Source: Rotaria sp.
Taxonomy: Eukaryota
NCBI GenBank assembly: GCA_905250055.1
Contig: CAJNOF010000002.1
Coordinates: 5,986,240-6,050,239, forward strand
Direction: 5' to 3'
DNA: 64,000 nucleotides
The position numbers and the translations under genes are program-made. The notes under the pieces were generated by a model, which worked only from the letters and a program-made list of their open reading frames with translations, did not search any database and was not told where the DNA came from. Positions 2,801-61,491 of this stretch are shown here, piece after piece; the stretch's first letter is position 1, and each line of letters begins with the position of its first letter.

Positions 2801-5800
2801 ATGGCAAAAATGCGTCATCTTCTATCAATTCTATCTATAATATTATTTATTAAAATAATTCATAGTGAAGTTACATTTGACTCTATATGTTCACCTGATG
2901 TAGAAGTTTCTGGAATGTCATCAACAGATGGTAATGATGAATATTCAATAGATGTATCAGAATCAAGATTTTCATCTGACGATGAAATTTCAGGTAAGTA
3001 ATGATTGGTCATATATATCGATTGATTTTGTTTTTTCTTTTTTTATTATCCTAGTGTATTTAAGACAAGTCCGTCCAAATTATGGAATTAATGAATTTGT
3101 TGTAGCTGCATTTGATCATGATGGAAATGTTGTTGGTCGATTTGATGATCCACAAATAGGAAATTTAGATGTAAAACATCATACATGTTCAAATGGTGCT
3201 ACTGTAAGAGTTTTGTTTAAAACGCAAAGATTTGTTATATATATACATATATATATATTTGGTTTATTTAGGCTGTTTATGCAGATCAAGTCGATAGTCG
3301 TGGTTATCGTGAAATTCCTTTAAAATGGATAGCTTCTGGTGTGCATCAAAATCTTGATGAAATTACTTTTAGGTAAATGAATTAGATTTTCCTATATAGT
3401 ATAATTTTTTTTTCTATTTTTCATTTTAGAGCAGCTGTTGTTTCAAATCGACAATTATATCGAGTAAAAGCAGCTCCTCTAAAACGAGTAAATATTGTTC
3501 TGTATTTTATTTTTTTGATAATAAATTTTATTAATTGCTCTTTGTTTTTTTTTCTCTTTGTTGTACAAAGCGTTTACCACCTGGAGCAAATCCTTATTCA
3601 CACGATCAATCAATTAATATTGATCATTGTGGTGAAACTCAAGGTTGTTTAATTGTTCCACAACAATGTCATAATTCTGCTAAATGTGAATATGTACTTT
3701 CATGGCAAGGTCTTGATGAAAATAAAGCTAAATTTCATATTGTTGCAAGAGTACAAGGTTTTGCTGGTGTTGGATTTTCAAAAGATGAAAGACGGGTAAG
3801 AATAAAAGTTAACTTTGACGTTTGAACATGTTCAACTACCGATACTGTGAGATGATTTTAACAAATTCATATGAATCTAAGGAACAAAAATATGAGAAAT
3901 CTGAAATTCGCCAAAATTTTAGTTTTTAATCTATTTGCATACTGTGTATGAATTAATGTTTTAGTTTTTTCTATACCGATTATGTTTAGAAATGCGTGAG
4001 GTCAGTACCATGGCAACAAAGAAGTTGTCGAGATTATGAGAAAATAGTTGTTCCTACCATAACTGAAAATTATAGTTAAAGATTCTATGATTTTTAAGTG
4101 AATTATCGTAGGAATCATAGCAATCATAATATGATTCAATAGTGATGATCTAAAAAATTACTAATGATCGTCGAATAAATAAATAAATAAGTATTGAAGG
4201 ACTTTTCGATGTAAACACTAGAATAGTTTTTTCTCAACTGAGAACAAATTAGACTTACTGAGGCCATAACTAGTACCACTAGAATAGAAGTTATCAACAT
4301 AAATGGAACACAGTTTGAAATTCAAATCGACACTAGACTTACGATTTATCTTACTATTTTATCTATCTATCGATAGTAATATTTGACATAGTCAAATTTC
4401 AACAAAGTTTTATTACAAATCCTTCATGAAATATGAAGAGCAAAAAGCTTAATGAGGCATACCGATAACCATTATGGATTCCATCTCTAGTTGCTGCGAC
4501 CAGAAAATTTTGGTTCCGTACATCGTTAATCATGTCACTCAGAGCTATTGTATAGAAAATAAACACATAAAAACTATGATAAAATCAGCGGTAAAAAAAT
4601 AGTTTTTATATATTGACAAACTTCAACAACTATGACATTCTTCAACTCTTTAGAAATTTCTTGTCGTTTAATGCCGCAATATTCTCTATCAATTATCGAT
4701 AATCTACAACTATTAAGAGAACAAATAAAGTTTAATTTTTTTTCTCTCATTAGAGTTCCAAAGTAAAATAATGAATTCAATCTTTTATGTGTTTTGAGTA
4801 GTTGCTCGTGGAATGATGATTCTAAGTTTATAATTTTCAAAGAAGCTTTTTTTTCCGTTCATTCAAGGGTGATGATCAAGTTATTTTATGTGCAAAAGAT
4901 ACTCAAGGTCATGTCAATGTTTATAATATGTTTGTTAGTGTTCAAAATCCACAATATGTTTTTCGCGGACGCCCATCGTATGGTTTACGAGATGCGGAGG
5001 GCTATTCTAATGGATCACATATTATTTGTAAATTCGAAAAAGATTTATCACCACATACAGATGATTTAGTTGAAAACGACGGACGCAATCAGGGTAGAAT
5101 TGATCAAGATAAATTAGTTGATTTACGACAGCCACATTATATGTATCCAATTTTTTCGGAGGCAGATTTATCGACACCACAAGGTATGTAAAATATAGTA
5201 GAAAAATATGATAAGATGATGCTTTTGTTTTAGGAATGCGTATCCCTTTTCAAGATATTTCAATTGTTGATAATCATCCAGTTAATTTTCAACGTCGTCT
5301 TTTGCAAAAATCACATCCAGCAGCGGGTTCTGTTCTAGCTAAAATTCATGGTAGAATAAATTAGAATGATTCAAGTATTTTATTTTGTTTGATTTTGTTT
5401 TTATCTAGCTATTTTGAATATAATTGCTTGGGTTCTTCTTGCATCAGCTGGTGTTATGGTTGCTCGTTATTTTGATTCAATTTGGCCTGAATATGAACGA
5501 CGAGTTATAGATAATACAGGTGCTGTAACAGTAGAACAAGTTCCAATACGTCGACCATTTTCGTACTTTACAGTAATTAACTATAATAGTTTTCTTTTTA
5601 GTTACAAATGATTGTATCTATTTGTTTTATTATTAATAGATTGTTCCTCCTATTATGGGTATTGTAGCTATATTAACATGGATTGCATTTTTTTGTATTC
5701 TTTTTGAACTCAACTGGCAATGGACACATGGAACACATCATATGTGGCATTCAATTCTCGGTGTTATTGTACTTGTTTGTGCTTTTCTGGCCGTATGTAA

Positions 5801-9600: not shown

Positions 9601-10989
9601 AGACCAATAGAATTTGATGTTGTTGTCACATATCATAACAAATAGCTCTGAACGCATTTATATTATTATGACATTAATTGAATAATGATGCAAGATCACA
9701 GAAAAATAAAGCGTCGTTTTTACTATTCATTCATATAAACAGAGAGTTTCTGGAAGCTTTTTAAGCTGAATTACATTACTTTCACCACTACTTTTAATGC
9801 AACGTAAGTATATTCTTAGGCTTGATCTCATTAAGCATACAAAGAAGCTTTTTTTAAACTTTACTATTGGATATAAATATTTGTTTTGGAAGTGTAATAC
9901 AACTAAATGGTAATTAATCAGTATTATTCATATTCAAACTGATACAATTTTATAACCACACTATTAATGATGATAAGAAGATTAGAGTGGCAGGACTTAC
10001 TAAGTCAAAATTTATTTCATCTATATGTCAGTCACGTGCTTTGAGTTTTTGTTAGTTCCTATTTTAAGTAAAAGTTTTCTAATTCAATGATAATAATATT
10101 GGATTGTTGATATGATTCTTTTTCTAGATAAGATGTCTCTAATTGAATATTTCAAAAGATAACATAGGGTGTACATTTTTGAAGAGAAAAAATATCTTTA
10201 ATTTTTACATAAACTTAATGTAATAAAATAATTTGTCCTTACATCAACATAATAAGATAGTTTTAAATTTGCAGAACTGTATAAGTCGAGTACTTACTTG
10301 TTGAAGAATATAGGTGGTTTTGAAAAAAATTTGAAAGAAAATACAAAGTAAATAAGCAGTTCCTTATTCTCTGTATATAGATTCTTTACTATTTCAGGTA
10401 TTCGTTTTTGTATTCTTTCGAGAAGAAATAATATGAAAAAGAAGCACACCATCACTTTTACCTTTTAATCTTATTTATTTTTGTACCGTAGATTTATGTG
10501 TTTTGAAAATTGAGAGGTAAAATCGCACAGACGTCAGCTATCAAGTATAGTTAATACTGATTTATATGGTCTTCATTTATCACCTTATGCTCTCTAGTTT
10601 TCTCTGTATTCTCTATATTTTATTCCTCTGCCGACTTATTTTCTTTCTCTGCTACCATATACATGGGCGTTTTTCTCACCAACATAACTATTCTTATACT
10701 TAACTAAATTTTCTCTTTTAATAAATGCTCGTGATGTTAGCGTCAACAGATGACACTCTATGACGCTCACTGTCTATATATTTTTGTCATGAGTTTTTAT
10801 CTTCCTATTTTGACACCGTTCTTTGATTTCTCTCCCATTGGTTTCAGCCTCCTAAGTAGTTGTTGTTTTTCTTCTTCTAGGAGTGATCAATTTACATTTG
10901 CGGAAATTTATTAAATCAAAAAAGTACATTGTGAACAATTTAAATTTAACATAAATAAAATTTTTTTTATTATGAAAATTTAAATTGAT

Positions 10990-11246
10990 TTAAATCGGAT
11001 TCAAATTCAATAAAAAAATATTTGAATCCAATTTTCATCCATTTAAATGAGTCTAAGCCCGATTCTCATGCATTTAAATCCAATTCAAATACATTTCAGT
11101 CTATTTAAACGCATTAGAAGCATATTTAAAACGATTTAAATCCATTTAAATTGGACTTAAATACCTTAGAATCGGATTTAAACTCATTTAAATGGATGTA
11201 AATTGGATTGAAACCTATTTTTATTGGATTTGAATCCGATTTAAAT
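10990..11246. repeat. AT-rich imperfect palindrome P1: roughly 80-bp arms at about 85% identity around a roughly 100-bp centre, built from TTAAATCGGATTCAAAT-type motifs
   Basis: The left arm 10990-11069 is the reverse complement of the right arm 11170-11246 by direct comparison. Surrounding low-complexity AT-rich sequence runs from about 10935 to 11300. Confidence 0.7.
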
Positions 11247-11672
11247 AAGTTTAAATTAATATATTTTAAATTTAAATTGTTGGAAATTTAAATTAAAAAT
11301 AAATAACAAAACAATGCCATTCCTATCTTCTTCCCTCTCACATCAACATCACTGTTATTTTCTCTCTGTCGTTATTATTATTGCTTTTTTATTCTTCTTG
11401 TTACCTTCATCATTATTGTTATTATTCACGTCCTGTTATATGTGTTTTTGCTTAGTTAACACATCCGAGGTAATTCGAGTCTCTTAGAAAATATCTTTAA
11501 CAGATGCATGTTCCTGTACATTCATCTTCCGATAAATGCAACCGTTAGCCTTTTAAACGAGGTTTCCTGAGGATATTCGAGCATCCTCGAAAGGGAGTTT
11601 GAACATGGTCAAAAAAAAGAATTTTTTTTTATCTCATTCGATTCCTTGAAAAGTAAGGGTATGATATTTTTT

Positions 11673-12083
11673 CAAGGGGGTAAATGCAGACGCCTAGCAC
11701 CCAGCACCTGCTCAGCACCTACAGCACCTACCAGCACCTACCAGTACCTACCGGCACCTACCAGCACCAACCAGCACCTACAGCACCTACAGCACCTATT
11801 AGCACCTGCCAGCACCTACCAGCACCTACCAGTACCTACAGCACCTATTAGCACCTGCCAGCACCTACAGCACCTGTTCGGCACCTATACCGCATTTCAC
11901 TATGAGCACCTACGGCACCTTCAGCACCTGCAACCATTGTTTCATTATCTTAAGTACTTAAGACAATAGAATAGTTGTTGAAGATGCTGAAAATGCCGTA
12001 GGTACCGTAGGTGCTCATAGTGGAATGCGGTATACGTGCTGTAGGTGCTGAGCAGGTGCTGGGTGCCTGCACTTTCCCCCTTG
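11673..12083. repeat. Nested hairpin element with 8-bp terminal inverted repeats (CAAGGGGG / CCCCCTTG), palindrome centre at CTTAAGTACTTAAG (11949-11962), asymmetric arms
   Basis: The right arm 11956-12083 is the reverse complement of the distal part of the left arm. The left arm is extended by a tandem array. The ORFs at 11646-11969, 11950-12159 and 12011-12199 are translations of this repeat, not genes. Confidence 0.7.
11696..11930. repeat. Tandem microsatellite-like array of AGCACCT / ACCTACCAGC units (about 25-30 units)
   Basis: Visible periodicity CAGCACCTAC/CAGCACCTGC repeated through this span. It is present only in the left arm of the hairpin. Confidence 0.8.
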
Positions 12084-12430
12084 TATTTTTTTTAATTTTC
12101 AGAATCTTATGTAACAGAGCTATAGGCTTGACAACAAAAGGAAGTCTGAAAAGTCGCAAAAAACACGTTTTTCGACACCTTTCAGTATTTCGCCTTTAAC
12201 TCCATCATTTTTCATCCGCTTCTTTCGTACAACGTCTGATTCGAAGGAGCGTATCAAACCGAACAAAAACATTTTGTATGAGGCTTTCAAAAAGTGGAGT
12301 CTTCAGAGAGAATAAAATTAGTTTTTCTCAAAAAGCTCCAGTTTTGTTTGGAACCAGCGTGTTTTCATTGCAAACTGTTTTTCGAGGCTATACAACTCGA
12401 ACCCATGTAAAAAAATAACCGGAAAAATCA

Positions 12431-12579
12431 GATTTTAATCGATTTTTTCCTGATTAATAATCGATTATAATGGCACGATTTTAATCAGATTTTTATCTGA
12501 TTTTTATGATTAAAATTGAATTAAAATCGTGCCATTATAATCGATTATTAATCAGAAAAAAATCGATTAAAATCGATTG
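12431..12579. repeat. Near-perfect palindrome P2 made of AATCGATT-containing units
   Basis: The reverse complement of 12431-12482 equals 12528-12579 apart from one mismatch. The central loop is about 12483-12527. Confidence 0.8.
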
Positions 12580-12944
12580 TATGTAAAAGTTTATAAAAAT
12601 GAATTAAACTCGAGTTGCTCTCAGTTTCTTACCTGGCTGCCTTTCAGTCAATTTTCATCTATTATTGCTTCCTAATGCATTTTAATCTATCTTTCTCTGT
12701 TTTCCAATTTTAATCCACCGTTACTTGTTCTCCGATTTTAATCTTGCTTACCTGTTTTCCCATTTTAATACATTTTTACCTGTTTTCTGATTTTAATATT
12801 TACTTACTGGATAATCGATTTTAATCATTTGCTTCGAAAACAGGTGGTTTTACCAATATTCGAACGCGAAACCCTAGTTTTCCCATGAGTTTTCTGTATT
12901 CTCCGTGGCGAGAAACCCTTAGGCTGTTGCCAAGCTAGTGCCTG

Positions 12945-12966
12945 ACATGTATACTAAAATTGGAAC
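12945..12966 (+). other. 22-nt segment nearly identical to the conserved 5' region of U6 snRNA (ACATGTATACTAAAATTGGAAC vs U6 ACATATACTAAAATTGGAAC); fragment only
   Basis: There is an exact 17-mer TATACTAAAATTGGAAC. The U6 ACAGAGA box and the 3' stem are not found downstream, so this is not a functional U6 gene. Confidence 0.35.
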
Positions 12967-13577
12967 TCCTATATAAATTGAATCACTTGAGATTACGCAA
13001 TTACATAAGTAATCGATTAAAATCCGGAGTAGTCGATTAAAATCAATTAAATCCCATACTAATCGATTAAAACTCACATAAACCCATTAAAATCTGTTAA
13101 ATCGAGAGATTAATCGATTAAAATTGATTGCAGTATTAATCGACAACTTGTGTCCTTGTAAAAACAATTAGCGTAATCGCTATGGAAATAAAATGTGAAA
13201 CATACAAACCAATTCTCATTGACTTCATGCAAACTGACATTTTCATGCATATTACGACATATTTCCTTGTCATTCCTCTTCTTACACCAAAGAATTTCAA
13301 AAAGGCAACACTCAATAAATACTACAGTAAAATATTACTTATAGATGCTTTCTGAGAGTGTTTTTGAAGACGGATCTCACGATCTGCGTTGAATCTTAAC
13401 CCTATCTCACATGGTTCGTGATGGATACAAACCCTATTTTCCATATCTCGGGTGTGGAGGGGTGAGAGTCACGCTCGAAATTTCCACCCCATATATACTA
13501 ACGATCCTTTCATATTCTGTTTCATAATAAACAATTATTTCGGATTTTCGAAAAGAAACTCGATCCTTCTGATGTTT

Positions 13578-13985
13578 TTAAAAATAACCGATTTTAATCG
13601 ATTACTAGCATCAATTGATTAAAATCGATTCGATTTTTAATTGATTATCTCCGATTTTATAAAAATAACTAATTTTAATCGACTGTTACTAATAATCGAT
13701 AAAAATCGATTAGATTCTTAAATCAATATTCCGGACTTTATAAAAATAACTGATTTTAATCGACTGTTACTAATAATCGATAAAAATCGATTAGATCCTT
13801 AAATCAATGTTCCAGATTTTATAAAAATAACTGATTTTAAGCGATTATTCTAATTAATTGATTCAAATTGATTAGATTTTTAATCGATTACTTCGGATTT
13901 CATAAAAACAATTGATTTTAATTGACTCTTACTTTCAGTCGATTAAGATCGGTTAGACCTTTAGGATTTTTTTGAAAGTAATCGA
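13578..13985. repeat. Tandem array of 5 copies of an 82-bp unit (unit begins ATAAAAATAACTGATTTTAATCGA), rich in the palindromic octamer AATCGATT
   Basis: Unit starts are near 13581, 13659, 13740, 13822 and 13903. Degenerate TAATCGATTAAAAT repeats also occur at 12980-13140. Confidence 0.75.
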
Positions 13986-14078
13986 TTTTTTACACAAATT
14001 TAATCAAAATCGCTTCTTTTAATCGATTTTTACCGATTTTTTAGCTGTTTTTTTTATATGGGGAATAGAAAAATCTAG

Positions 14079-14677
14079 TATAGGGTATCTTGTAGAGTGC
14101 TTTGCGCTCTACAAAATCTATATGAGAAATTCGAGAAAAAAATGTCACATTTGATCGTAATTTGAAAGACAAAGGAGAGAAAAAGCACCTTCCTTCCATG
14201 TCCAAGTTTAGAACAAGCAAAAAAAACTTGATCATTGAATCATTAAACACTTATGTTCAAGAAAAATCTATGTGATATTCGGCATCAGCGCCAAAAAGTG
14301 AGTCAGGCAGCACGAGTTTCGTTAAAAATAACTTCTTTACAAAATTCATCCCTATTCCATCTAAGCTTCTTTTTTTTAAACTTTTGTTTGGGGTCTCCCT
14401 CAGGTGAATTTTGTCTAAAAATTATTTTAAATGAAAGGCATATTGCCTAACTCACTTTTTGATGCTGATGCCAAATATGACATGGGTTCTGCTTGAAAAT
14501 GAATGTTTAATGATTCAATGATCGAGTTTTTTTTCGCTTTTACTATATTTTTATATGAGAAAGATGTGCTTTTTCTCCCCGTTGTATTTCAAATTACGAG
14601 CTGATGTGACTTTTTTTCTCGAATTTCTTATACCGATTTTGTCGAGCACACAATTCTTTACAAGATACACTATATCC
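14079..14677. repeat. Imperfect palindrome P3 (about 600 bp, arms about 85-90% identical, centre about 14377)
   Basis: The reverse complement of 14430-14677 aligns with 14079-14300. The inner stems GCATCAGCGCCAAAAAGTGAGTCAGGC and GCCTAACTCACTTTTTGATGCTGATGC face each other. The ORFs at 14041-14250 and 14253-14450 are artefacts of the palindrome. Confidence 0.75.
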
Positions 14678-15021
14678 GATTTTCATATTCAACTTTCATA
14701 GCCTCGAAAAACTCATTTTTTCCCTATGAAGACTTCACTTTTTGGAAACCTCATATAAGACTATTTTATTCAGCTTGATAAACTCTTTAAAATAAGACGT
14801 TGCACAAAAGACGCGGATGAAAAAATGATAGAGTTAAAGGCGAAATACTGAAAGGTATCGAAAAACGTGTTTTTTTGCGATGTTTCAGACCCCTTCTTAT
14901 TGTCAAGGTTATAGCTCTGTCAAATAAGGTCCTGAAAGTGAAAAATTTTTCCATACCCTTACTTTTCAAGGAACCGAATGAGATAAAAAAAACAAAATAT
15001 TTTTTTGACCACGTCTCAACG
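14678..15021 (-). mobile_element. Dispersed repeat R1, copy B (inverted relative to copy A; lacks the nested hairpin and has a roughly 55-bp internal deletion)
   Basis: Its reverse complement aligns with 11597-11672 plus 12084-12407 of copy A. Weak similarity continues to about 15060. The ORFs at 14787-15146 and 14875-15087 fall within it and are not credible genes. Confidence 0.65.
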
Positions 15022-17439
15022 ATTCTCAATAGGCTGGTCGAATCTCTCTTAAGCACTTTATATATTAATATCCATTTCAGAAGATGAGTATTCTTGGAAT
15101 AACTTTTGATAGGAACGGATAGAGATCTGTGGTTTTCACCATTCAAAAAAGAGAATGAAACTGCACTGAAACTTGAATATCAGATTTCTCTGGGAAGTTC
15201 CCTAAGAATCATTCGTCAAGTTTTTAAAAAATTAAGGCTTTTTAGTAGGCTGAGAAGGTGGGCTTTTCATCAATAAATCAGAAACAAAGACAATTTTGTT
15301 GAAAAATCTGCCGAAAACACGAAATAAAATGTTAATAACTCTTGATCAACTTATGCTTTCAATGCCAGACTTGTATATATTATTGGTCTTTAGTCAAGGA
15401 TTCGGGTGCACAAGTGAAAGTTAAGTTTTCAAAAGTTTTACATTTGACAATTTTTTGCGTTTAAGAAGTTTGGCCAGTGGCTTCGACACAACCTGCCGGA
15501 AAAACTTGATGTGCAAGGTACGATGCAGCTTCGTCTCCTCGTTCAACAATGAGAATCGCATATCTCTATTGTGTTCATATCAAAAATTATTTCAAAAATA
15601 CTCCGTCGCCTTTTAATTTGAAATGGATATTAGTATAGGATATGACTGGCCTTGATTTACTTCAACTAAGAATAGACATCTTTCAATATCACTGATCATT
15701 AGTACAAATGAGTAAATTTCAAGATTTCTGCTGGGCTTTATTATTTCTTTTGGTGGTCTGCTAATTATCTTATTGCTTTTGCATCTATGAAACTCTTCGC
15801 TACAGACTCATTGACCAATCAGCATTGTACCATAGATCATTCAGATCTCAATGAGCACAAAAAAAGTTAAACGATTAGCAGATCTAAAATACATATTGTC
15901 AATTCACGAAGAAATCTGCAAGTTCACTTACTGTGAGAAAGCATAGATTATCCATTAAAGCAAATTCTAATAAGTCTTAACGATACTGAAATCAAACACT
16001 TAAAGCATTATTTAATGCACACTCATTAGGAACGACAAAAGTGCAACATAGGTGAAAAGAGAGAAAAAGAAAGAACTTCGTCTAGGAGTTTAAGTAGGTG
16101 GTTAGACCAATATATAGAGACATATTTAGTGAAATATGTTAGGTAGATACGTAACTGGTTACAGAGGTTGATTGCTACACAGTTTCGAAAGTAAGCTAAT
16201 GAGTAAAGAGAAACATCTATCTTTCTGCGCATCAATTATTAATGTTATATGAATCGAACATAGAAACAAGAAATTCATGGAAAAACATAATAGAAAAGGC
16301 ATTAAAATAGAGAAAAATAAATCAAGAAGCGTGTCAATACACGGGGAACCTGGATATTTTAGGATATCAATTATAAGAATTTGTAATGCATAAACTGCCA
16401 AAAATGTTAGCTCGTTTAAAAAGTGATCATTTTCATACCGCACTTTTTTGAACGCTTTTGGATGACCATCTGGAATTGCGGTTAGTGCTCGAGAACATTG
16501 GAAATTTATCTAGCGTTTTCATGCTTTTTTCTCTTTATCTACTTAAATGCTGTTATTTATCTTGCTATTATTTTGATTTGTTTTCTTATTTCTGAATCTA
16601 GAAAAGAAAAACAACCATCTGCTTCTGTTGTCTATGTTGATCTTCAAATTAATCGTCAAATACACATTAAACGGAACATCTATATGCATTGTTCACTTTT
16701 TTCTTTACCAATTAAAGACAGCATATCCATAGAGAAAATGAAAAACTCGATAGCCATTATTTCTGTCACATTAACTTCATCGTGATATTAATTGATAATC
16801 GCTATTATAGACTTACGAACGGTGAATCTTATCAGAGAGTGTTACTTGTGTTTATCGTTGGGGTATAAATACTGTAAAAGCTGTGTTTTATTCACTCATA
16901 AGAAGAGAAATAATAAGGTTTGATAAAAATAGTGAGTGTCTGTTTCATGTGTGTATGAGAGAAATAAAAATTACGCGCACTGCAACGCAGATGGTTTGTT
17001 ATAGTTATCGAATATGAAATGTTTAAACCTAAAATAAGATGACAGCGCTCTAGTCGTATTTTCGCCGAATATAAAACAAATTGTCACAAGTAGATTTGTT
17101 TTATATGTAAAATAGGAAGCTGTTTACAGTATTTATTAATAGTTTCTTAATAGATAAACTTAAGTAGCCCTCTATAACCGTGCTTACTTCGCAAGAGCTC
17201 CTAAATATCTTGTTAATTATCATAAACGAGCATTGGAATGTTGTCAGTATCTCTTGTAAATATGACGCATTAGATGAGCTTAATTATTCATGTAAATTAC
17301 TAGTCAATATTATGGATCTGACTTGAAACACATTACATAAGAAGTCTTAGGTGATTCTCGAAGTATAGGTAAGAATCATTTAGTCGATAATAGTGTAACA
17401 CTCCCGATTGACTGGCATTCATACATGATATTCAACCTT

Positions 17440-18861: not shown

Positions 18862-20554
18862 ATGGCAAACGGTTGTGAATTTGAATTTATGGAATACATG
18901 GATGAGCAGTCCATTGATCCAAATTTAATATGCAGCATTTGTCATAAACCTCTTAAGGATCCAGTTTGTACATCATGTGATCATACATATGGTCGTGCAT
19001 GCATCACACGATGGCTCAATCAGAATGACATTGGTTCATGTCCTATGTGCCTTAAAAAGCCCTTGTCGATTAATGAACTCACTCAAGCTAGTCGTCCCTT
19101 ACGTAATATGCTTGATCAACTTCGAGTTCAGTGCCTATTATGTACACAAACTGGTTTACAACGTGGAAACTTTGTTGATCATATGAACAAGGTTTGTCCA
19201 AAATCTGTGATTCAATGTCAAGCTGCTGACATCAAATGTCCTTGGAAAGGACCACGTGATGAATTACAGAATCATATGATAGCATGTGTTTTTGAACCAT
19301 TGCGACCAGTATTATCTACACTAATTGCTGAAAACCGACAACTTATCGATCAAGTTCAAAAACATGATAATGAAATCAAGGCACTAGCACAAAAGATGTA
19401 TCAGTTACAAAAGAGTAAGTCAATATTTTTGTGAATCATTAAAGCAAACGTCTGGCATGTGAGATTGTTGTTTGTTTAGCAGAGAAAAATAAGTCCAGCG
19501 ATGAAAGTGATACTCAATCAGTTTCGGAAGTCTCCGTCGATGGTACAAATCAGAAAGAGGAAGATGCTATATACATAAGGAATCTACCTGCTACTGTCAA
19601 ATTTAATGATATATTTGATCAGTTTTCAAAAATTGGACGCATCAAGGTATAGTTATGGTTATTATATGTATATATAACAAGTTTTAGATTCTTACAATTT
19701 ATATCAAACATAGTCTAAAATGAGTGGACAGGATGCGAATAAACATGATTAAATTTTGAGATAGGTGGAGGATTAGTTCTGTTCATCTCGGTAACTGATG
19801 TTCATAAAGATGGATAAGATCATAACTGTTTTCACTTTCTGTTTTACGAATATCTTGATGTTTCTTTGTATTCAGCAAAAGATTTTGCACTAAATATAAT
19901 TATTTGTATTTGTTCAACTCGATGCAGAGAATTTATTCTCTCAAACTATTTGCTTGCAATTCGACGAGACATATATTACATCTGAAGAATAGTTGCATCA
20001 CTAAAATGGTTATGATATGATATTTGCTTATTACTTGGTACTTTGATATTTTTTAGTACAATCCGAACACTCAGAAAACCGAAATATTCATTTTTAAAAA
20101 TCCAACAAAGAAGAACGGCCTGTGCAGCGCAAAAGTAGTCTATGCTAACAAGGAATCGGCCGCTGCTGCAGTAGCGGAATACAATGGTATATAGTGTCTT
20201 GAATATATGTGGAGTAGTTCAGTATTCTTTTTTATGCATAGGTAAACATATTCCACAATGGAATACACGTCTTCAAGTAAATATATCATATGCAACGAGA
20301 AAGAATTTAAGCGATTGTGGAAAAGCCAATAATCGTAAATAGATATTATTAATCATATAAATAGTAGATTTTATTCTTATTTAGAAGGAAACATTCATGG
20401 GCATCAGGAAGCTAAAGTGATGGAAGAAAGCAAAGAAGTTTCAAACAAAGACAAAAAGGGTTCCGCCATGGTTGATCAATTAGAGCCACAAATCGAAGAT
20501 AATAAGGCAGAAACTAAGAAAAATACACGGTCTGTTAAATACTGCTACAGATGA
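18862..20554 (+). CDS. RING (C3HC4) plus TRAF-type zinc-finger plus RRM-domain protein, probable E3 ubiquitin ligase with an RNA-binding domain; 4 exons
   Basis: Exons: 18862-19414, 19480-19646, 20057-20186, 20385-20554 (TGA), all GT-AG with consistent phases. The RING is CSICHKPLKDPVCTSCDHTYGRACITRWLNQNDIGSCPMC. The TRAF-type zinc finger is CLLCTQTGLQRGNFVDHMNKVCPKSVIQCQAADIKCPWKGPRDELQNHMIAC. It is followed by a coiled-coil and an RRM with RNP2-like IYIRNL. Confidence 0.7.
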
Positions 20555-47230: not shown

Positions 47231-48082
47231 CTACTTTATAGATTACTAAAGAATCAGTTCGGTCATTAAAACATGATCATAAACCAAACGATACATGAAA
47301 AGCATTAGGAAGTGCATAAATTGATAGCACAAGTCCATCTTATTCACAACCAAGTGATATTAACGTTCAATTGAAGCCCATCATTTCTCATAATTATGGA
47401 AACAATGATTGTCATACATGAAATGAATTCAATATTATTTTAGACATGCTTTTTTCTTCAACTTTATATTCAAATCCGAATATATTTATAATAAAAGTTC
47501 AAAGATTAAATAACAAATATTTTAGCATGCAATCCTTATATGAAATCTGTACAAATAATTAGCTTCGGACAGCCGGAATACAGAGAAGCATTCTTTCGTA
47601 TTGAGTAGTTCTGCTTTCGTTATTTTTCCTAATTTATTGTCCCATGGACGCTCATTCTTCCGATTTTCATCCATTCAGCGCATGAGTTTCTTTGAGTATG
47701 TACACAACTCATACAAGCATTCAAATATTTGTTAATGGAAAGTATGTCTGTGCATGTCAATATTGAGAAAAAAATGTTGCCTAGGGTAGTAATAATACAG
47801 TTTAAAAACTCGATGAAATTTATCAAGGCATACATGAAAGTCACTAAAAACAGTAAAACCAACTTCATCTAAATGATGACCATGAGTCTCACATTAGAAT
47901 TGTCTTTAAGAATTTGAAAATAAAGAAAAGATGAATTTAATCATTGCAAGAAAATGAACTCGAATTACGATCATTATGTCGAGATATAAAAAAGAAAAAG
48001 ATGAACTTTTTTCAAATATTATTTTTTGATCTGTATTAGAACTCTTTTATGAAACCCACAATAGAAGAAAACGATCATATCT

Positions 48083-48598
48083 AACATTGATAAATACTCT
48101 TCTTTCACTTAACTTAATATAATAATTTACTTAACAAAAACAGAAACATAAAGCTAGTGATGTTTCGTATCTCGATAAGATGCTTCGTCAGACATTAACA
48201 CAAACATAAAGCACATAACTTAGCATACAACAATTTATACAAGTGGAAACATAGCAAACTAAGAACAAACAAACTAGGCTATTTTCTTCTTTTTCTATCA
48301 TTCTTTGATAGTCATACGGAAAAACAAGACGGAAACAGTGCCAGCTACAGAGGGAGTTAATCTTTTTCCGTATCACTATCAAACAATGACTGAAAAAGAA
48401 GAAAATAGCCTAGTTTGCTTGTTCTTAATTTGTTCTATTTCCACTTGTATAAATTGGTGTATGTTAAGTCATTTGTTTTATATTTGTGTTAATGTCTGAC
48501 GAAGTATCGTATCGAGACATGAAACATCACTAGCTTTTTGTTTTTGTTGAATAAATTATTATATTAAACCAAGTGAAAGAAGAGTATTTATCAATGTT
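48083..48598. repeat. Long imperfect palindrome / hairpin (about 516 bp, arms about 250 bp at about 80% identity, centre about 48341) flanked by 15-bp direct repeats AGAAGAAAACGATCA (48063-48077 and 48629-48643)
   Basis: The mirror ORFs at 48188-48382 (-) and 48305-48499 (+) encode near-identical peptides, which is diagnostic of an inverted repeat. Direct comparison of the arms confirms it. Confidence 0.8.
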
Positions 48599-51500
48599 GA
48601 ATATCAAATCAACCTTTTTAACAAGATAAGAAGAAAACGATCAATTTAATCTCTTTCGCCATTCAGTCCGATTCATCAACAGTACGTAATCACATTTTTC
48701 TCAACATATCAAGCAAAATTATAATAAAAAATGACTTGAGATGTTTTACTTTGAAATCATATCTGCTGGATTTTCTGTGGCAGATTTTCAAAATAATTTT
48801 CGGTATGTGTACTTTTCGATATTCCTTGAACATAATCTCATATTCATGTCCTCACCCTTACAATATCTGTTTTTTTCTCACTTGATTTAATCAAATATTT
48901 TACAACATCAGACAAATCAGTTATTTATTCTGATTTTCATTGTTACAAAATTTGATAATAACAAATTTATGTTTATCTCTTCTGTAATTACATCGTTCTT
49001 ACTTGTCTTTTTCATCTGTATCTTATCAGCACATGTACAGAATGAGAAAAAGGACCATACTTATGACAAAGAAAGAAAAAAAATTTATGGTTGAATGATA
49101 ACGATTTATTTTTCTTTTGAATGCAATTTATATCGCTTTTCGTCACCCGCGCTTCAAGCAGGCTTATGCACATACAAAGGATACGACTATTATATTGAAG
49201 TAAAAGGATAGACAGTGTTGATACAAGCTTCGTTGTGTTATTTATCTCATAAAAAAAATCATTATGATATAAGCTGTACAACGACAAAATAAGTAATCGC
49301 GTATAAAACGATTTGGTAATGAAAGAATGTCCTTGTTAATGAGTGATCATAATACAAAAAAGAAAAGGTAAAAAACAGTCGTGTATTAAAAAGGACAGTA
49401 AGTATTATGCTTTACAATTTTTTTATTTCATATTTGAAATTGAGAAAATTTAAACGAAATATGTGTTACTACTCTAAGCATTTGATCATGATTACCCAGA
49501 TCCATCAAAACGGATTCGTTTATAGCACGTTTTCAAAATATAAACATTGAAAAAATGATATGTGCATGTTTATTCTTCTCGTAAGCGAATCGTATAATGA
49601 CTGGCGATAATCCTATGAGTTTAAAAATACTTTGATAAAGTAGTTAAAGTTAAAGTAGCATCCTTCAATGTTAACTTTCGCATAATCAAAGTTGAAATAA
49701 AGATTTTCTCACAACAAAAAAGTTTCTTTTGTGGAAACATAAAACTCAAAACTTCGAGAAATCGATATCAGATTCGGACTCCACCTTTCCCACAAACTGT
49801 ATTGAAAAAACGTTTTTTTTCCTAAAAAAATCTCTACTTTAACTTAAAGTCAAGTTAAAGTGGCAACTCTAATGCTCAGTGTATACGATGTATCACAGCC
49901 ATTTAAGTCTATTAGTGAAATATTTGTAAAGAGGGTGTGTTTGTGCAGTTTTTGTTGCTCAAAATATTCGAAGTATACAATAAAGTAGTCGTTCACAAAC
50001 TGGGCTTACTTTGATGATATAGTTACATGGATACAATTAATTTTTAGTTGTAAGACACTATTTAGTATCGTACACTTAAAAGGAAACAGATGTTTCAGAA
50101 AATCTTAAAAAAAGGTTTCTACAATGGAAACAAAGTCGAAATCCTCTTTCAACTTCTTCTTCCAATAAATGTTTCCTAACCAATTTCACAATGAAAGTTA
50201 CAGCAAAGGATGGGTGTGATATGTTATTCTAGTCATGACAATCAGTCATATTAACATGTTTCCATAATACAAAACGAACTTTGCAATCTGATATGCCAGT
50301 GCATTCCAACAAAAAAATATTGCTAGACTATAGGAAGCTTTCAACTAAAACAGTACACTAAATGCACATATATACATCAGTTCACTAACAAAAACTCTGT
50401 TTCTCTCAGGATGATGCACAGTTTTTACATATTCAGCGCAAAGATAGTTCATGCTGCACATCCACTTTCACTGCTGGCAGTATACCACTGGTCAAAAATT
50501 GTCGAAATATATGAGTAAATATATTGATCGATGTAGTCGATAATGTAAAATAATGTCCATTATTTACATTATCGGCTACAATGGGTTATCTAAATAAATT
50601 ATTATTTTTTTCTTTTATTTAGATCCGTATAAACATTAACTAGGTAGCAAAATGATGAAGCAAAGAAGAACCAAAAATTGCTAATCATATTAACGATTCA
50701 TAGTCTTATGAATCTTGCAATAAATGCAAATCCACATAAGCAACATATTGGGTTAGTGAGTTTTGTTAATGAAAAGATTTCTTATTTTTTATACTTGTAC
50801 ATCGTAAGTTGTTCTTCAGTAAAACCTAACCTTGATTGAAATTTTTCTCAGAAACAGTCATATTCCTCTGAAAAATAACTTATGACATATACACATAAAA
50901 AATAAGATATTTTATTAATAAAACTCACTAAATCAATATGCTGCCCATGAGAATTTACATTTATTCTTAAATTCAAAAGACTATGGATCAGTAGGTTCGT
51001 ATCTTGATCCTACCGGTAATTGCATGGAACACTTGCGATATAATCGATAGTTTCCACATCGTTCGGGAAGTGGTTTCGTAAACAAAATTATGAAGTCTAA
51101 ATGCAGTAAAGAAGTATACAAACGTGACAGTAAAATGAAAGATAGATAGATATATGTATTAAGGACTTACATTTGTTGAGTTTCTGATTGGTAAATAGCT
51201 CTCTCTATGAGATATGACAGCTAAAAAAACAACAGCTCTGTGTGAAATCTGGAAGAATTATTTACAACATGTTTATGACTAGGAAACTTTCAGTAATATT
51301 TCTTGCAATTGTTCGATACTCTAAAGTTATGGCAACATTCCAAGACCTTCACAAGTTTTCTTAGAAACATTTTTTTCTTACAGTGTTTAGAATAATATAC
51401 GGTCATTTTTAAAATGAACGCTTCAATCTGGGATAAATTTTGGGGGAATAGATTCAGGAAATAAAAGTACGACTAGGTTTAGGGAAATCGAAGTATATAC

Positions 51501-56502: not shown

Positions 56503-57081
56503 TCATTGAATACGATGATTCTGACGATCGAAGGACAAACCTCGGGGAAAGTTGAACTGATTTGGTGATTTTCCTTGGCCATTTCCACCGACAACGACTG
56601 TGTTCTGTTTCGCTTTTGGAGGCCAATGAATCACTCGATTATTTGCAGAATCTGCCACATAGACGGTACCTAAAGCATCGACGAACAGCCCCTCAGGATA
56701 CGACAATTGTGTGAGCGATTTTTCTTCACCTTTACCTCCAGCGACGATAATCCCTTCTGTTGCACCTATATTCCATTTCATCACACGATGATTGCTGAAG
56801 TTTGACACGTAGACAGCTTCTTGTCAATCGACAAAGAGATATCCTGGTGCTTTGAGTTGATTGAGACGAGTTCCTTTACCATACCTACCAGCCACGAGAG
56901 TTCCATTCTTATCTCCTATTTCATATCGTCTTACTTCAACTTTGTCAGTATTAGAGATGTAGATATATCTCTGACCATCCGTAGCCAATCTAAAATACCC
57001 GATGTTGTCGAAGAGATTTTCTCCTTGAGTTGTGTTATTGAGACGAGACCATCGTAAGACTCGCTGATTATGCAAATCCAA
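56503..57081 (-). pseudogene. NHL-repeat (beta-propeller) coding fragment interrupted by an in-frame TGA; likely a pseudogene or gene fragment
   Basis: The two minus-strand ORFs 56824-57081 and 56503-56808 are in the same frame and are separated only by a TGA (plus-strand 56824-56826). NHL signatures are VYVADSANNRVIHW, IYISNTDKVEVRRY and VYVSNFSNHRVMKW. There is no in-frame ATG upstream of the first NHL ORF and it abuts a minisatellite. Confidence 0.55.
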
Positions 57082-57104: not shown

Positions 57105-57185
57105 CCCGAAATCTCTGGAAATCTCTGGAAATCTTTTGAAATCTTTAGAAATCTTTGGAAATCTTTAGAAACTTTTAAGAATCCT
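57105..57185. repeat. Minisatellite, about 8 copies of a 10-bp unit GAAATCT(C/T)TG
   Basis: The repeat reads GAAATCTCTGGAAATCTCTGGAAATCTTTTGAAATCTTTAGAAATCTTTGGAAATCTTTAG. Confidence 0.85.
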
Positions 57186-58908
57186 TTGGCCCTATAATGA
57201 CGCATGTTACACCAATAATACATCAGTGAACTATGGAGATTCAATGGAATTTGTATTGACCGACTTTCATATTATTGTACTGTTACCGTTATATCTCTAA
57301 TTTTTCTGCAAGAGAAAGAACCTTTTCAGCAAAGAAGGAGTACTTTTTTTTATAAAGGTTGTTGAGAATACTCAAGTAAGATTGGGTAAACATTGCATTG
57401 CAATACATGACAGATTAATTAGAAAGACCATAAAGTTTAAGACAGAAATAATTCTTTATAATAAAATGTTTTGTTTGATAGTTTTCATCAAGAATTCTTC
57501 TGCTATAGGTTGAATGATTCATTGTAATCAGCTAAATGTAACTCAACTGAATCATAGATTATAACTCATCTTTTTAGAAAATAAACATAAAATCATGAGT
57601 GATAAACCGTCAGTGGTGTTCCAAAGGAGTGTGATTGAAAAGCTGATCATGAATGTCAAACTTTCAACGAAGTAACTTAACACGTTTCGGTTTTGTAAAA
57701 AAAAATTGTCTACATATGGAACTCAATATGCAAAACTTAAAATTTTTTCTTTATGAACACGACGAACAATTTCAAAAAGTGCATGTGACACAAACTATCA
57801 CCCCCAGTAGAGACACTTATATTGTCAGTTAAGGAAATGAAACACGTTGGGTGCAGAGTGAAGGTCTCCCTACCAAACTTATAAATTTAAAACATTAGCT
57901 ACTGTTGCTGTGTGCCGACCATGATATTATAGTTTTACAATGTTAGCAGTATATATAGCATGATTAAAGCTCAAAGTTTCAGCAGATTCTTTAATTTTAT
58001 TTTTTTGATGAAAGGAAAGAGATGATGAGATGCTTTAGATAAATACGTATGTTTCATATTTAAAAAAGAGATTGTAAAAAATATCAAGGGAAAAATTTAT
58101 GTTAGCAGCAATGCCAAATATAAGGAAAATAGATCCGAAATTCTCACCTTGATATATTTTTCAAACTTTTTTCAAAAATATGGAGTCAATCTTTTAATGA
58201 TTCTACTCGAAAAGTTCTATTTAACCATTAAGAGAACAGAACAAGAGATCTTACTGAAATTTTTAGTTTTGAGCATCTTGCAAACACTAGAGACAGCTGA
58301 AAACTTGAACATCTTGATCGGTACACACTGACACGGTCTAGAATTTTAAACAGGCTAATTTAACGATAAGAACTTTGAATTTGATTCAAATGTGTTTAAC
58401 GACTCTATTTGTCAAATCATCCACAAAAGGTGATAAATACGAAAAGCAAATGATGGACAACTTGCTGGCAGAAATTATATTATCTAGGATAATACCACTT
58501 TACATAGAAGTAGATTTTTGACAAAAGGAATAGCTAAAAGTCAGCTGAACCTTCTTTTTATTCTTACGACCCTAATGCCAAATCTTTCTGCCATGGTTGA
58601 GATCTGTATCAAGCTTCACAAGTTTAAAGAAATAACTCTTTGCTTCAAATGAGGACCGTAAAATGTACCACACTATTATCAATAGCCAAACTACTTATCT
58701 TTCATTTAGTAAACGGTAGTCCAAATAGTATTAATCTAATAATGAGATCTTGTTTAGACGCCGAAAATTTGGACTTTAGATTCCAATTCACTACGGGCCA
58801 CTAAGTCTAGTTTGTTATAGTCTTGCCGGATGTATGTTTAATGTTATTAGAGTTCTGCGAAATGAAGAGTAAAAGAGGCATCGATTGACATCTATTCTTT
58901 TATATATA

Positions 58909-60161
58909 TCGGGTTGGTGCAAAAGTCTCCGCCGATTTTTTTCTTTTCAATGTTTCATGATTTTATTGAAACAAAATGTCACTAATCGAAAACATATATA
59001 CCATTATTGTCTATGACATACTCCCATCTTTTAGGCAAATCGAGAATGCCATCTTCAAAGAATTTCTTTGATAAAGACGAAAAGAAACTCTCGAGGTCCG
59101 ATTTTAGATGTAGTCGATCATCAAAATGCTTTTTCACCAGGTGATTGCGGAGCGACCGGAACAGATGATAATCAGAAGGTGCCAGATCTGGTGAATATGG
59201 TGGATGAGGTAAGACCTCCCTCCCTAATTCTTCCAGCTTCTGGCGAGAAACTTTTGAGATATGAGGTTTTGCATCATCGTGAAGCAATCGAACTTTTCGT
59301 CTTTCTGGACGATTTCCTTGTAGTGCAATTTTCAAATTCTCAAGTTGTTTGCAGTAAAGCTTCGAGTCGACCGTGGTATTAGGTAGTAGAAGTTCCCAGT
59401 AGATAATACCTTCGAAATCCCACCAGATCGGCAGCATAATTTTTTTCGAATGCAGGTCGTTTTTTGGTTCAGGTTCAGGCAAATCTTCAGGATTGACCCA
59501 TTGACGCTTGCGTGTATGGTTGACATACAGGATCCACTTTTCATTACCAGTGACAATCTGCTGAAGAAACTTGTGTCGGTTGCGTTTTGACAACAAAGAA
59601 TTGCATATGGTGATTCTTTGCTGTATATTGTCCGAGCTTAGTTGATGTGGAACCCATGTTTCAAGTTTACTAACTTTTCCGATTTCATGTAAATGCCGAT
59701 CGATGGTGAAGTGATCGCATAGAAGCATAGCTGATAATTCACTGGTAGTTAATCGTGGATTGTCTTCGATCAGGACTTTTAATTGTTCAATATCAATTTC
59801 CAGAGGACGTCCACACCTTGGCCGATCTTCCAATGACATATCACCTTCCCGAAATCTTTTAAACGAATCTCGACAAGTGCGATCAGCAACAACACGTTCA
59901 CCAAGTGCAGCACATATATTGTGCACAGCAGCACTTGCATTGTTCCCCAGTTGGAACTCATACAAAATGCAATGTCGAATATGAATAGAAATCTCTGACA
60001 TATTTTAATATGGAATGTAAAAAAAATCGGACATTCGTTAATGTCACATTATAGTACTACACAGGCGGTATCAAATGTGCAAAAACCACGCCTGTATAGT
60101 AGCGCTAGATGGCTTTAAAAGACTTTCAAAAAAATCGGCGGATACTTTTGCACCAACCCGA
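58909..60161 (-). mobile_element. Mariner-family (cecropia/Hsmar1-like) DNA transposon, 1253 bp, with 34-bp TIRs and TA target-site duplication; apparently intact
   Basis: The left TIR is 58909-58942, TCGGGTTGGTGCAAAAGTCTCCGCCGATTTTTTT. The right TIR is 60128-60161, its reverse complement with one mismatch. TA sits at 58907-58908 and 60162-60163. The TIR resembles Hsmar1 TTAGGTTGGTGCAAAAGTAATTGCGG. Confidence 0.9.
58982..60001 (-). CDS. Mariner transposase, full-length 339 aa, DD34D-type (HDDAKPH third-Asp motif, WVPHQL, YSPDLAPSDYHLF)
   Basis: Uninterrupted ORF colinear with Mos1/Hsmar1 transposases, including the HTH N-terminus, WVPH..L, GDEKWI, HDxAxPH and PYSPDLAPSDYHLF. Confidence 0.9.
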   Translation of the reverse strand: MSEISIHIRHCILYEFQLGNNASAAVHNICAALGERVVADRTCRDSFKRFREGDMSLEDRPRCGRPLEIDIEQLKVLIEDNPRLTTSELSAMLLCDHFTIDRHLHEIGKVSKLETWVPHQLSSDNIQQRITICNSLLSKRNRHKFLQQIVTGNEKWILYVNHTRKRQWVNPEDLPEPEPKNDLHSKKIMLPIWWDFEGIIYWELLLPNTTVDSKLYCKQLENLKIALQGNRPERRKVRLLHDDAKPHISKVSRQKLEELGREVLPHPPYSPDLAPSDYHLFRSLRNHLVKKHFDDRLHLKSDLESFFSSLSKKFFEDGILDLPKRWEYVIDNNGIYVFD

Positions 60162-60522
60162 TATATTAACAAAACCTCAAAAGTTTTATATTTCATGAAA
60201 AAAAGAGCTCAAAGAAATATTTTTGGAGTACTAAATCGATGAAATGTCCATCTTCATCAACTTGTATATTGTCTCATGCAGATTATAATTAGGTTTGGTT
60301 TTAGAAATAATTAGTAAAAAATTTAGACTTACTCGGAATTGCTGCATATACTCTGGTTCAGAAATACTCTCAATAGAATATGGACTTTGCAGAATTTCCA
60401 TCGCAGTTTTCATCTTAATGACGTAGTCATACTCAAGATTTAATCTCAGTATCAAGAAATATTTATGACTCTGGATGAAAGTGAGCATTAGTAAAACGAA
60501 ATTATCATTGCTAGACTTATGA

Positions 60523-61491
60523 TGCGGCCAACTATCCGACTGGTTTGAAGTCAAAAGCGGTGTTCGCCAAGGGTGCACAATTGCCCCGGATCTGTTTCTA
60601 GCACCAATGGACTGGCTGCTCCAACGAACCGTACACCGAGGGTTGCTCGGCGCTACACTGGGTAACGAAGTATTCACTGATTTGGACTTTGCGGATGATG
60701 TAGCACTTCTAGCCGAGACTGTGGAAGCAATTCTGCTGGCATTGGAGGTCATGCAGCACGAAGCTCGCCCGCTTGGCTTAGAAATCAACTGGCCAAAGAC
60801 AAAAATTCAAGAAACCAGAAGCGAAACGACTAACAACAACGCACTATCTGTGGGCAGCCACAATGTGGAAGTGGTCGACTCATTCGTCTACTTAGGTTGC
60901 ACGATTAACAAAACAGGCAGCAGCATACCAGAAATCACCAGAAGGATTGCAATCGCTCGAAACTGCATGAAGACCCTGGACAAATCCATCTGGCGCTCAA
61001 GCATAGCGTTACAGACCAAAATTCGTCTTTACAACTGCTATATATTACCAGTTCTTCTGTACGGCGCGGAGACCTGGACAATAACTGGCTCGGTCGAGAA
61101 AAAATTAGATGCTTTCGACAACTGGTGCCTTAGACGAATTCTCCACATACCATATACGAAACACATCACGAACAAAGAAGTTCGTGAACGCACCGGCCAA
61201 CCTGAAATTAGCACAACTATCAAAACTAGACGACTACGACAATTCGGACATATAGCCAGGGGCAACCCCCTCTCCGACCATACCAGAGCATTGCAAGCAA
61301 ATATTAATGGGCCACTAAGTGGATGGAAACGCCCTCGTGGCAGACCACGCCACACGTGGATCCGCTCCGTCGAAGACGACCTACGTCCATTCAATCTAGG
61401 TCTTTTCTCCGCCTGGAAAAATGCTCAAGACAGGCAAAAATGGCGTAGTCTTGTAACGAAAGCAACGTCCAGTAGGATACGCTACAGATGA
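60523..61491 (+). CDS. 5'-truncated non-LTR retrotransposon (RTE-like LINE) reverse transcriptase, C-terminal RT domains
   Basis: The frame opens after a TGA at 60520. The RT motifs are FEVKSGVRQGCTIAPDLFL, FADDVALL (the YADD box), LEINWPKTKI and YLGCTIN. GC content is much higher than the host. The antisense ORFs at 60231-60788 and 61038-61394 are spurious. Confidence 0.8.
   Translation, partial: CGQLSDWFEVKSGVRQGCTIAPDLFLAPMDWLLQRTVHRGLLGATLGNEVFTDLDFADDVALLAETVEAILLALEVMQHEARPLGLEINWPKTKIQETRSETTNNNALSVGSHNVEVVDSFVYLGCTINKTGSSIPEITRRIAIARNCMKTLDKSIWRSSIALQTKIRLYNCYILPVLLYGAETWTITGSVEKKLDAFDNWCLRRILHIPYTKHITNKEVRERTGQPEISTTIKTRRLRQFGHIARGNPLSDHTRALQANINGPLSGWKRPRGRPRHTWIRSVEDDLRPFNLGLFSAWKNAQDRQKWRSLVTKATSSRIRYR

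Follow-up and report, generated by a model that had tools for sequence, protein, structure and literature searches.

The described systems that come closest to the locus reported here are the miniature inverted-repeat transposable elements (MITEs), among them families of near-perfect palindromes from AT-rich invertebrate genomes ('PAL'/Cele of Caenorhabditis elegans, for example), the Foldback (FB) elements of Drosophila, and the hAT and En/Spm (CACTA) transposons. The target duplication of Drosophila FB is 9 bp in length. The terminus consensus of hAT elements is YARNG, and a duplication of 8 bp together with such ends is a hAT signature. The subterminal regions of En/Spm contain many copies of one motif, in both orientations and near both ends, and in both hAT and En/Spm elements the subterminal repeats are binding sites for the transposase. 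The subject of the present work is a nest of palindromes in the bdelloid rotifer Rotaria sp. Silwood-1, found within a stretch of 64,000 nt of assembly GCA_905250055.1 that was analysed as a whole and is referred to here as the window. Between 19 and 45% of bdelloid genomes has been described as 'repetitive', mostly in the form of simple or unclassified repeats, and less than 1% of the unclassified repeats were called as MITEs (PMC7943196). The insertion of a foldback-like DNA transposable element has also been described as an indel in fosmid contigs of bdelloids (PMC2861651).

A 4.7-kb stretch of the window very probably represents a lineage-specific nest of six unrelated, non-coding derivatives of class II (cut-and-paste) transposons that occupies an intergenic spacer. 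Six non-coding inverted-repeat elements were resolved (P1, the R1 foldback, a hairpin element, E2, P3 and P5) and matching inverted termini were found in all six. The nest lies in non-coding DNA 3.8 kb upstream of a RING/TRAF gene, and the same nest is present in three further Silwood-1 assemblies at an identity of 98.8-99.8%. Its elements and their parts are the following.

10935-11296, no strand assigned: P1, a 362-bp palindromic element outside the R1 complex
11572-15046: the R1 foldback, of which the two former 'R1 copies' are the arms
11572-11672, plus strand: outer part of the R1 left arm, by local alignment with the reverse complement of 14952-15046 (BLAST 84%)
11673-12083, no strand assigned: the hairpin, a hAT-like non-autonomous element inside the R1 left arm
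12092-12398, plus strand: inner part of the R1 left arm, by global alignments (BLAST 82.2% over 241 nt)
12402-14062, plus strand: E2, a non-autonomous element of 1661 bp bounded by terminal inverted repeats
12426-12578: P2, a palindrome within E2 (87% over 154, E=6.9e-47, self-BLAST)
12679-12798: 28-bp array of E2
12840-12990 and 13140-13575: conserved unique stretches of E2
13005-13140: inverted motif block of E2, with the array motif in the opposite orientation
13575-13957: tandem array of E2 (period 81, 4.8 copies, 79% matches)
14063-14690, no strand assigned: P3, a palindromic element (628 bp) lying centrally within the R1 foldback
14691-15046, minus strand: the R1 right arm, uninterrupted
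15063-15635, no strand assigned: P5, a 573-bp inverted-repeat element with termini TAYTAATATCCATTTCA

A preliminary description of this DNA had listed four palindromes, an inverted pair of copies of R1, arrays of the octamer AATCGATT and a tandem array. All of these were found to be present, far beyond chance, when 10500-15600 was compared by BLAST with the whole window and scanned with repeat finders. The palindromes were reproduced in a folding check against dinucleotide shuffles, with DNA fold z-scores of -10.5 to -19.8, and no shuffle folded as well as P1, the hairpin, P2 or P3. No sequence relationship connects the palindromes with each other, nor do they contain copies of the neighbouring host DNA. 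The extent of the hairpin was as first described, while P1 and P3 proved to be longer than the 10990-11246 and 14079-14677 originally assigned to them. Four palindromes had been regarded as independent of each other; P2 is not, being part of E2 along with the octamer and 81-bp arrays. The inverted pairing of R1 stands, with its bounds moved from 11597-12407 and 14678-15021 to 11572-12398 (interrupted by the hairpin) and 14691-15046, and the period of the tandem array, first given as 82 bp, was measured as 81. A further weak palindrome, P5 at 15063-15635, was added to the list.

The hairpin interrupts the left arm of R1, with TATTTTTT on either side of it (11665-11672 and 12084-12091) as a perfect 8-bp target-site duplication (TSD). 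The right arm of R1 serves as the paralogous empty site for this insertion, the two arms being colinear and of equal length after removal of the element and one duplicate. The termini of the hairpin are CAAGGGGGTAAATGCAG and CAAGGGGGAAAGTGCAG, with CAAGGGGG at both ends. Its outer arms (11673-11730 and 12083-12033) match each other at 82.8% and an inner palindrome (11858-12062) at 75.2% (E=1.4e-36) by self-BLAST, the DNA fold z-score is -10.5, and a subterminal array of the 10-bp unit CCAGCACCTA, repeated 17.9 times, extends over 11701-11875. The ends begin CAAGG, which fits YARNG, so that the element displays both structural features of hAT, the 8-bp duplication and the ends; a hAT transposase whose ends match it was not found. 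No hAT open reading frame (ORF) is present in the window, and no CAAGGGGG terminus was found near the hAT gene of two loci from the related Rotaria sp. Silwood-2 (L009 and L010). The terminus CAAGGGGG occurs three times in the window where 0.15 occurrences are expected. A solo terminus, CAAGGGGGAAAAAGCAG, was observed at 57079, followed by a 10-bp array of GAAATCTTTG repeated 6.9 times (57108-57175). This region resembles the hairpin in its end and in its architecture but has a different repeat unit, and it has no partner end in the window.

E2 is known from two copies, at different sites in two species, and both bear matching termini and 3-bp duplications, which marks it as a genuine element, 1.6-1.66 kb long, that has terminal inverted repeats and makes a 3-bp TSD. 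The copy in the window begins CCCATGTAAAAAAAT and ends ATATGGG, and the duplicated triplet GAA is found at 12399-12401 and 14063-14065. The copy from Silwood-2 (3997-5593 of L004, one of a series of loci fetched around the Silwood-2 orthologue of the RING gene) begins CCCTTGTAAAAAAAT, ends ACATGGG and is flanked on both sides by CAT. The termini are common to the two copies and the duplications are perfect at both sites. The terminus pattern is CCC(A/T)TG (CCCATG/CCCTTG). The Silwood-2 copy occupies a separate 4.2-kb contig, where its flanks are unrelated and nothing else of the nest, neither R1 nor P3, accompanies it. Within E2, the P2 palindrome has a DNA fold z-score of -16.9, and its central 56 bp are absent from the Silwood-2 copy. 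The octamer AATCGATT was observed 19 times in the window against an expectation of 3.9, with 16 of the 19 located between 12437 and 14028, inside E2, and the motif GATTTTAATC occurs 24 times in E2 in both orientations. The number of units in the 81-bp array (13575-13957 in the window, 4787-5096 in L001 and 1677-2116 in L002) is 3.8, 4.8 and 5.4 in three Silwood-1 assemblies and 4.8 in Silwood-2, a variation that reflects either a real length polymorphism or collapse and expansion in assembly.

In its 3-bp duplication, and in the repetition of GATTTTAATC in both orientations near both ends, E2 is reminiscent of En/Spm (CACTA) elements. However, its ends read CCC(A/T)TG and not CACTA, and the target triplets GAA and CAT differ from the TWA of PIF/Harbinger, so E2 fits neither of these superfamilies. 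The Silwood-1 and Silwood-2 copies are 89% identical over 1419 nt at non-orthologous sites. Around the neighbouring genes, orthologous DNA of these two species, whether coding or not, is 69-84% identical, and the higher value for E2, which comes from one pair of copies, could be due to horizontal transfer, recent shared activity, constraint or contamination.

The two blocks previously regarded as copies of a dispersed repeat, R1, behave as the arms of one foldback-like insertion. A search with nhmmer returned these two copies in the window only, with no others among some 320 kb of further Rotaria loci (a set that is partly redundant between assemblies and includes RING/TRAF paralogue loci), so the description of R1 as dispersed was not borne out. 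By self-BLAST the inner block (12089-12327 against 14945-14706) matches at 82.2% (E=1.5e-61) and the outer block (11599-11674 against 15019-14939) at 84%. These two pieces of the left arm match adjacent parts of the right arm and are split from each other by the hairpin. After excision of the hairpin and P3 the left arm aligns over its full length with the reverse complement of the right, with one 56-bp indel (about 12331-12386) that is present only in the left arm and has the direct repeat GTTTTTC on both sides. The outer left terminus was placed within 11572-11599. When E2 and then P3 are excised the arms abut (GAGGCTAT-ACAACTC / AACTTTC-ATAGCCTC) with no host DNA between them, which supports repeated nested insertion, one of the readings that the preliminary description had offered. 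The R1 pair is therefore best read as a single palindromic element of about 0.8 kb in which arms of some 350-400 bp enclose a loop of roughly 7 nt. A scan for tandem repeats reported no arrays in R1's own sequence, and the sole array within its span is the 10-bp array of the hairpin. The subterminal tandem repeats that had been included in the R1 architecture belong instead to E2. A model in which 11597-15021 forms one foldback, with arms running from R1 into the AATCGATT arrays, was also considered and was dropped once the Silwood-2 copy of E2 was found; the apparent continuation of the R1 arms into the arrays is formed by the two inverted termini of E2.

P1 and P3 are palindromic over their entire length. 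P1 (10937-11294) matches its own reverse complement at 76.6% over 363 nt (E=2.6e-71, self-BLAST) and has a DNA fold z-score of -13.3. It is largely made of the palindromic octamer ATTTAAAT, of which 11 of the 17 sites in the window fall within it, it has AACAATTTAAATTTAA at both ends, and a tandem-repeat scan gave periodicities of 10, 21 and 52 bp. P3 matches its own reverse complement at 75.5% over 641 nt (E=2.7e-115, self-BLAST), with a DNA fold z-score of -19.8 and termini GAATAGAAAAATC and GAATATGAAAATC, and the same scan detected no tandem arrays in P3's own sequence. Its ends read GAATAG and GAATAT, and the GAA that opens GAATAG is the right-hand copy of the triplet duplicated by E2.

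P5 is flanked by TA at 15061-15062 and 15636-15637, which is weak evidence of a duplication in DNA of about 30% GC. Its site is uninterrupted in R. sordida, where the sequence reads TTATAGCACATGACT in place of the ...TTTA(TA-P5-TA)GGATATGACT of the window. P5 is compatible with Tc1/mariner. Derivation of P5 from the mariner element located elsewhere in the window (58904-60166) was considered and rejected, as the termini of the two are unrelated.

The comparison with R. sordida extends to the whole nest. The relevant contig (L011) comes from a 10x assembly and contains no Ns at the locus. It is colinear with the window on both sides of the nest, 3462-3993 corresponding to 10217-10735 of the window and 4562-5284 to 15627-16291, and where the window has 4.9 kb (10735-15627) R. 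sordida has about 570-590 bp, with all six elements absent. The non-element spacer that is left in the window amounts to about 490 bp, near the size of the R. sordida spacer. Conservation of the flanks is at the nucleotide level only, with stops in every reading frame. After excision of the elements a 16-nt piece from the gap between R1 and P5 (15047-15062, with the core TTAAGCACTT) is colinear in R. sordida, and host homology restarts with TTAAGCACTT at 15049-15058, 3 nt past the outer end of R1 at 15046. The R. sordida locus is colinear and lacks the nest, and therefore either the nest accumulated after the split of Silwood-1 and R. sordida or it was lost from R. sordida. In the same spacer, R. 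sordida has about 4.7 kb (5284-10031 of L011) where the window has 83 bp (16291-16374), so the spacer has gained or lost other sequence as well in that lineage.

The nest has no coding capacity, as had been noted in the preliminary description. The longest ORF is 119 aa, ten nest ORFs gave no Pfam matches at E<=1, and thirteen concatenated R1, E2 and P3 ORFs with lengths of 45 aa or more, searched against a collection of 5.8 billion protein sequences, gave 8000 candidates of which none was significant. A tRNA scan detected no tRNA genes in the nest and no Rfam family reached its gathering score there; an origin as a short interspersed nuclear element (SINE) or structured RNA was rejected on the basis of these scans. 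When Rfam was searched over 10700-15700 with relaxed thresholds, plant microRNA (miRNA) models (MIR161, MIR7723, MIR530 and others) were seen on P1, the hairpin and P2. Their scores were about 20-60% of the gathering score and represent generic, structure-only matches to long hairpins rather than evidence for miRNA genes.

How do these elements compare with the systems described above? Like MITEs, they are short (0.36-1.7 kb) and non-coding with inverted termini, the whole element often forms a hairpin, they lie nested in non-coding DNA, and TSDs of 8 bp (hairpin), 3 bp (E2) and TA (P5) accompany three of them. They differ from MITEs in size, as E2 (1.66 kb) and R1 (about 0.8 kb) reach or exceed the usual range, in copy number, the high value that defines MITEs having been seen for no element of the nest (E2 has two known copies and the hairpin the one related solo terminus at 57079), and in that the search for an autonomous partner gave no match, the termini of the intact mariner of the window being unrelated. 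The likeness to Foldback lies in the long inverted arms that constitute most of R1, P1 and P3, in the short reiterated motifs of the hairpin (10-mers), P1 (ATTTAAAT) and E2 (28- and 81-bp units with AATCGATT), and in the copy number of the E2 array, which is variable between assemblies. However, the duplications here are of 8, 3 and 2 bp and not 9, the R1 arms are not tandem repeats, no sequence similarity to anything retrievable was detected and there is no FB-type coding copy; membership in the Drosophila FB family proper is not supported. A transposon nest of this kind is ordinary for an animal genome, and it is the family members that are new and unnamed.

From the way in which the elements interrupt one another we infer the following history. 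A foldback-like R1 of about 0.8 kb would have entered the spacer, after which the palindromic P3 would have entered the R1 loop. The 1.66-kb E2 would then have entered the exact junction of R1 and P3, duplicating GAA. A hAT-like element with subterminal 10-bp repeats would have entered the left arm of R1, duplicating TATTTTTT, and P1 and P5 would have entered the same spacer separately; the inferred order places neither of these last two steps relative to the entry of P3 and E2. For each element, a transposase encoded elsewhere would have recognised the terminal and subterminal repeats and moved the element in trans. By analogy, the octamers of P1 (ATTTAAAT) and E2 (AATCGATT) and the 10-mers of the hairpin may be subterminal repeats of the transposase-bound type. 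The palindromic appearance would arise because such elements consist of little more than two inverted ends, and the nesting because insertion into existing elements is harmless to the host.

A number of observations weigh against the reading of the locus as a nest of six transposon derivatives. A second R1, P1, P3, P5 or complete hairpin was found by nhmmer neither in the window nor in the other Rotaria loci, and exact-pattern scans, made with one or two R1/E2 blocks only, gave 0 matches in metagenome and viral contigs and in prokaryote genomes. A convincing TSD was sought at the junctions of P1, P3 and R1 and none was found; at the outer ends of R1, where the preliminary description had proposed to look for one, there is just a degenerate similarity of 7-9 nt (TCCTGAG / TCTCTTAAG). 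The structure of P1, P3 and R1 suggests that they are mobile families, and for P5, to judge by the copy search, it is likewise the structure that points to mobility. The empty site of R1 in R. sordida consists of a 10-nt exact colinear match, and the alignment reached 145 against 143.5 for the best control. In addition, the arms of P3 are 75.5% identical and those of R1 82%, though P3 must be the younger. The greater divergence within P3 means that arm identity is no clock and that the elements were already imperfect palindromes at insertion.

An apparent absence of the nest from Silwood-2 does not count as evidence, as the Silwood-2 scaffolds are reference-guided joins with single-N gaps. RaGOO was used to order the contigs along the Silwood-1 reference (PMC7943196), and single-N joins are present in all three of the long scaffolds (L004 at 7994, L005 at 7831 and L006 at 7659). 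One of these, L006, was considered as an empty site (6.95 kb against 428 bp) and was rejected because a single-N join falls exactly there. The join lies about 2 kb upstream of the RING/TRAF gene, the shorter Silwood-2 contigs all end there too, and beyond it the sequences are wholly different between assemblies, two of which are from sister animals. Directly after the join, at 7660-7800 of L006, another small palindromic element was observed. The Silwood-2 contig that bears E2 was probably placed at this position because of E2 itself.

The preliminary description had also proposed a Foldback-type or composite transposon. The R1 arms are inverted and bracket the block 11572-15046, the interior contains no host DNA and the whole block is missing at the R. 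sordida site, all of which would be expected of one composite Foldback-type transposon that moves as a unit, has the R1 arms as its true ends and carries its own core in the form of E2, P3 and the hairpin. This is nevertheless very unlikely, as the Silwood-2 E2 has its own termini and 3-bp duplication with neither R1 nor P3 alongside, the hairpin has its own 8-bp duplication and is inside one arm only, the tandem repeats are part of E2 rather than of the R1 arms, and neither the composite nor R1 was found a second time in the window or the 320 kb of Rotaria loci. Thus the R1 pair can be retained as the arms of one insertion, with an interior that is not R1's own core. Less probable still is that the locus consists of debris from local rearrangement, in which a fast-evolving spacer acquired inverted duplications through fold-back repair of double-strand breaks and no transposons were involved. 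Desiccation of bdelloids entails frequent repair of double-strand breaks. Silwood-1 is among the desiccating bdelloids (PMC7943196), neither second copies nor clean TSDs were detected for R1, P1 and P3, and the turnover of the spacer is fast, as is seen in the different 4.7-kb insertion that R. sordida has nearby. In contrast, in half of the six elements defined inverted termini come with perfect duplications of 8 bp, 3 bp (at two sites) or TA, another species has E2 at a second locus, the end of the hairpin is seen again at 57079, and the palindromes are neither related to each other nor copied from neighbouring host DNA.

A locus producing hairpin RNAs was the third possibility raised in the preliminary description. 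It could also be asked whether the nest acts as a source of hairpin RNA or small RNA, similar to a PIWI-interacting RNA (piRNA) or endogenous small interfering RNA cluster, with read-through transcripts being diced and silencing the families concerned, a role that would be compatible with an origin as a nest. Transposon nests are the usual substrate of small-RNA clusters, and the predicted hairpins are very stable. The Argonaute, Dicer and RNA-dependent RNA polymerase families are also expanded in bdelloids (PMC7943196). This is, however, the least probable of the explanations considered: Rfam gives only the long-hairpin plant miRNA models far below gathering score, and the elements other than E2 are not common to the Silwood-2 or R. 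sordida loci examined, where none of them was found. The broader proposition that E2 has undergone horizontal transfer or very recent activity in both lineages, that the nest is a source of double-stranded or small RNA through which an asexual animal whose RNAi machinery is expanded silences these families, or both, appears unlikely.

The remainder of the window is about 30% GC and contains intron-split animal genes, transposons and further palindromes.

18862-19434: RING/TRAF ORF
34.7-36.8 kb: exons of the major vault protein gene
elsewhere in the window: a C2-domain gene and a Fringe-like gene
about 48066-48610 (within 48064-48643): long palindrome
50695-50989: palindrome of about 295 bp
58904-60166: Mos1-type mariner, with its transposase ORF at 58982-60001, minus strand
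60607-61491, plus strand: reverse-transcriptase fragment ORF, adjoining the mariner

The RING/TRAF ORF is 99% identical to a protein of Rotaria sp. Silwood1 and has increasingly distant matches in Rotaria sp. Silwood2, R. sordida, Didymodactylos and Adineta. The mariner is apparently intact: its terminal inverted repeats, 39 nt long, are 97% complementary, and its transposase ORF of 339 aa is uninterrupted. No annotated protein on record corresponds to this ORF, no annotated Silwood-1 mariner proteins were found, and the nearest proteins, from other sources, are 82% identical. The mariner may have been active recently. The palindrome at about 48066-48610 has arms that are up to 89% complementary and unrelated to those of the nest, and a 14-bp direct repeat (GAAGAAAACGATCA) is found at 48064-48077 and 48630-48643, which would be unusually long for a TSD. 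The palindrome at 50695-50989 has arms of 93 nt that are 76% complementary, and its sequence is unrelated to the others.

Bdelloid rotifers are a test case for the fate of transposons without sex. This locus is otherwise an ordinary transposon nest and alters no concept; what it shows, base by base, is that part of the unclassified repeats of Rotaria consists of nested palindromic non-autonomous DNA transposons. The termini and TSDs described here (the hAT-like type of 8 bp, an unassigned 3-bp type, and TA) could be used to seed the annotation of these families.

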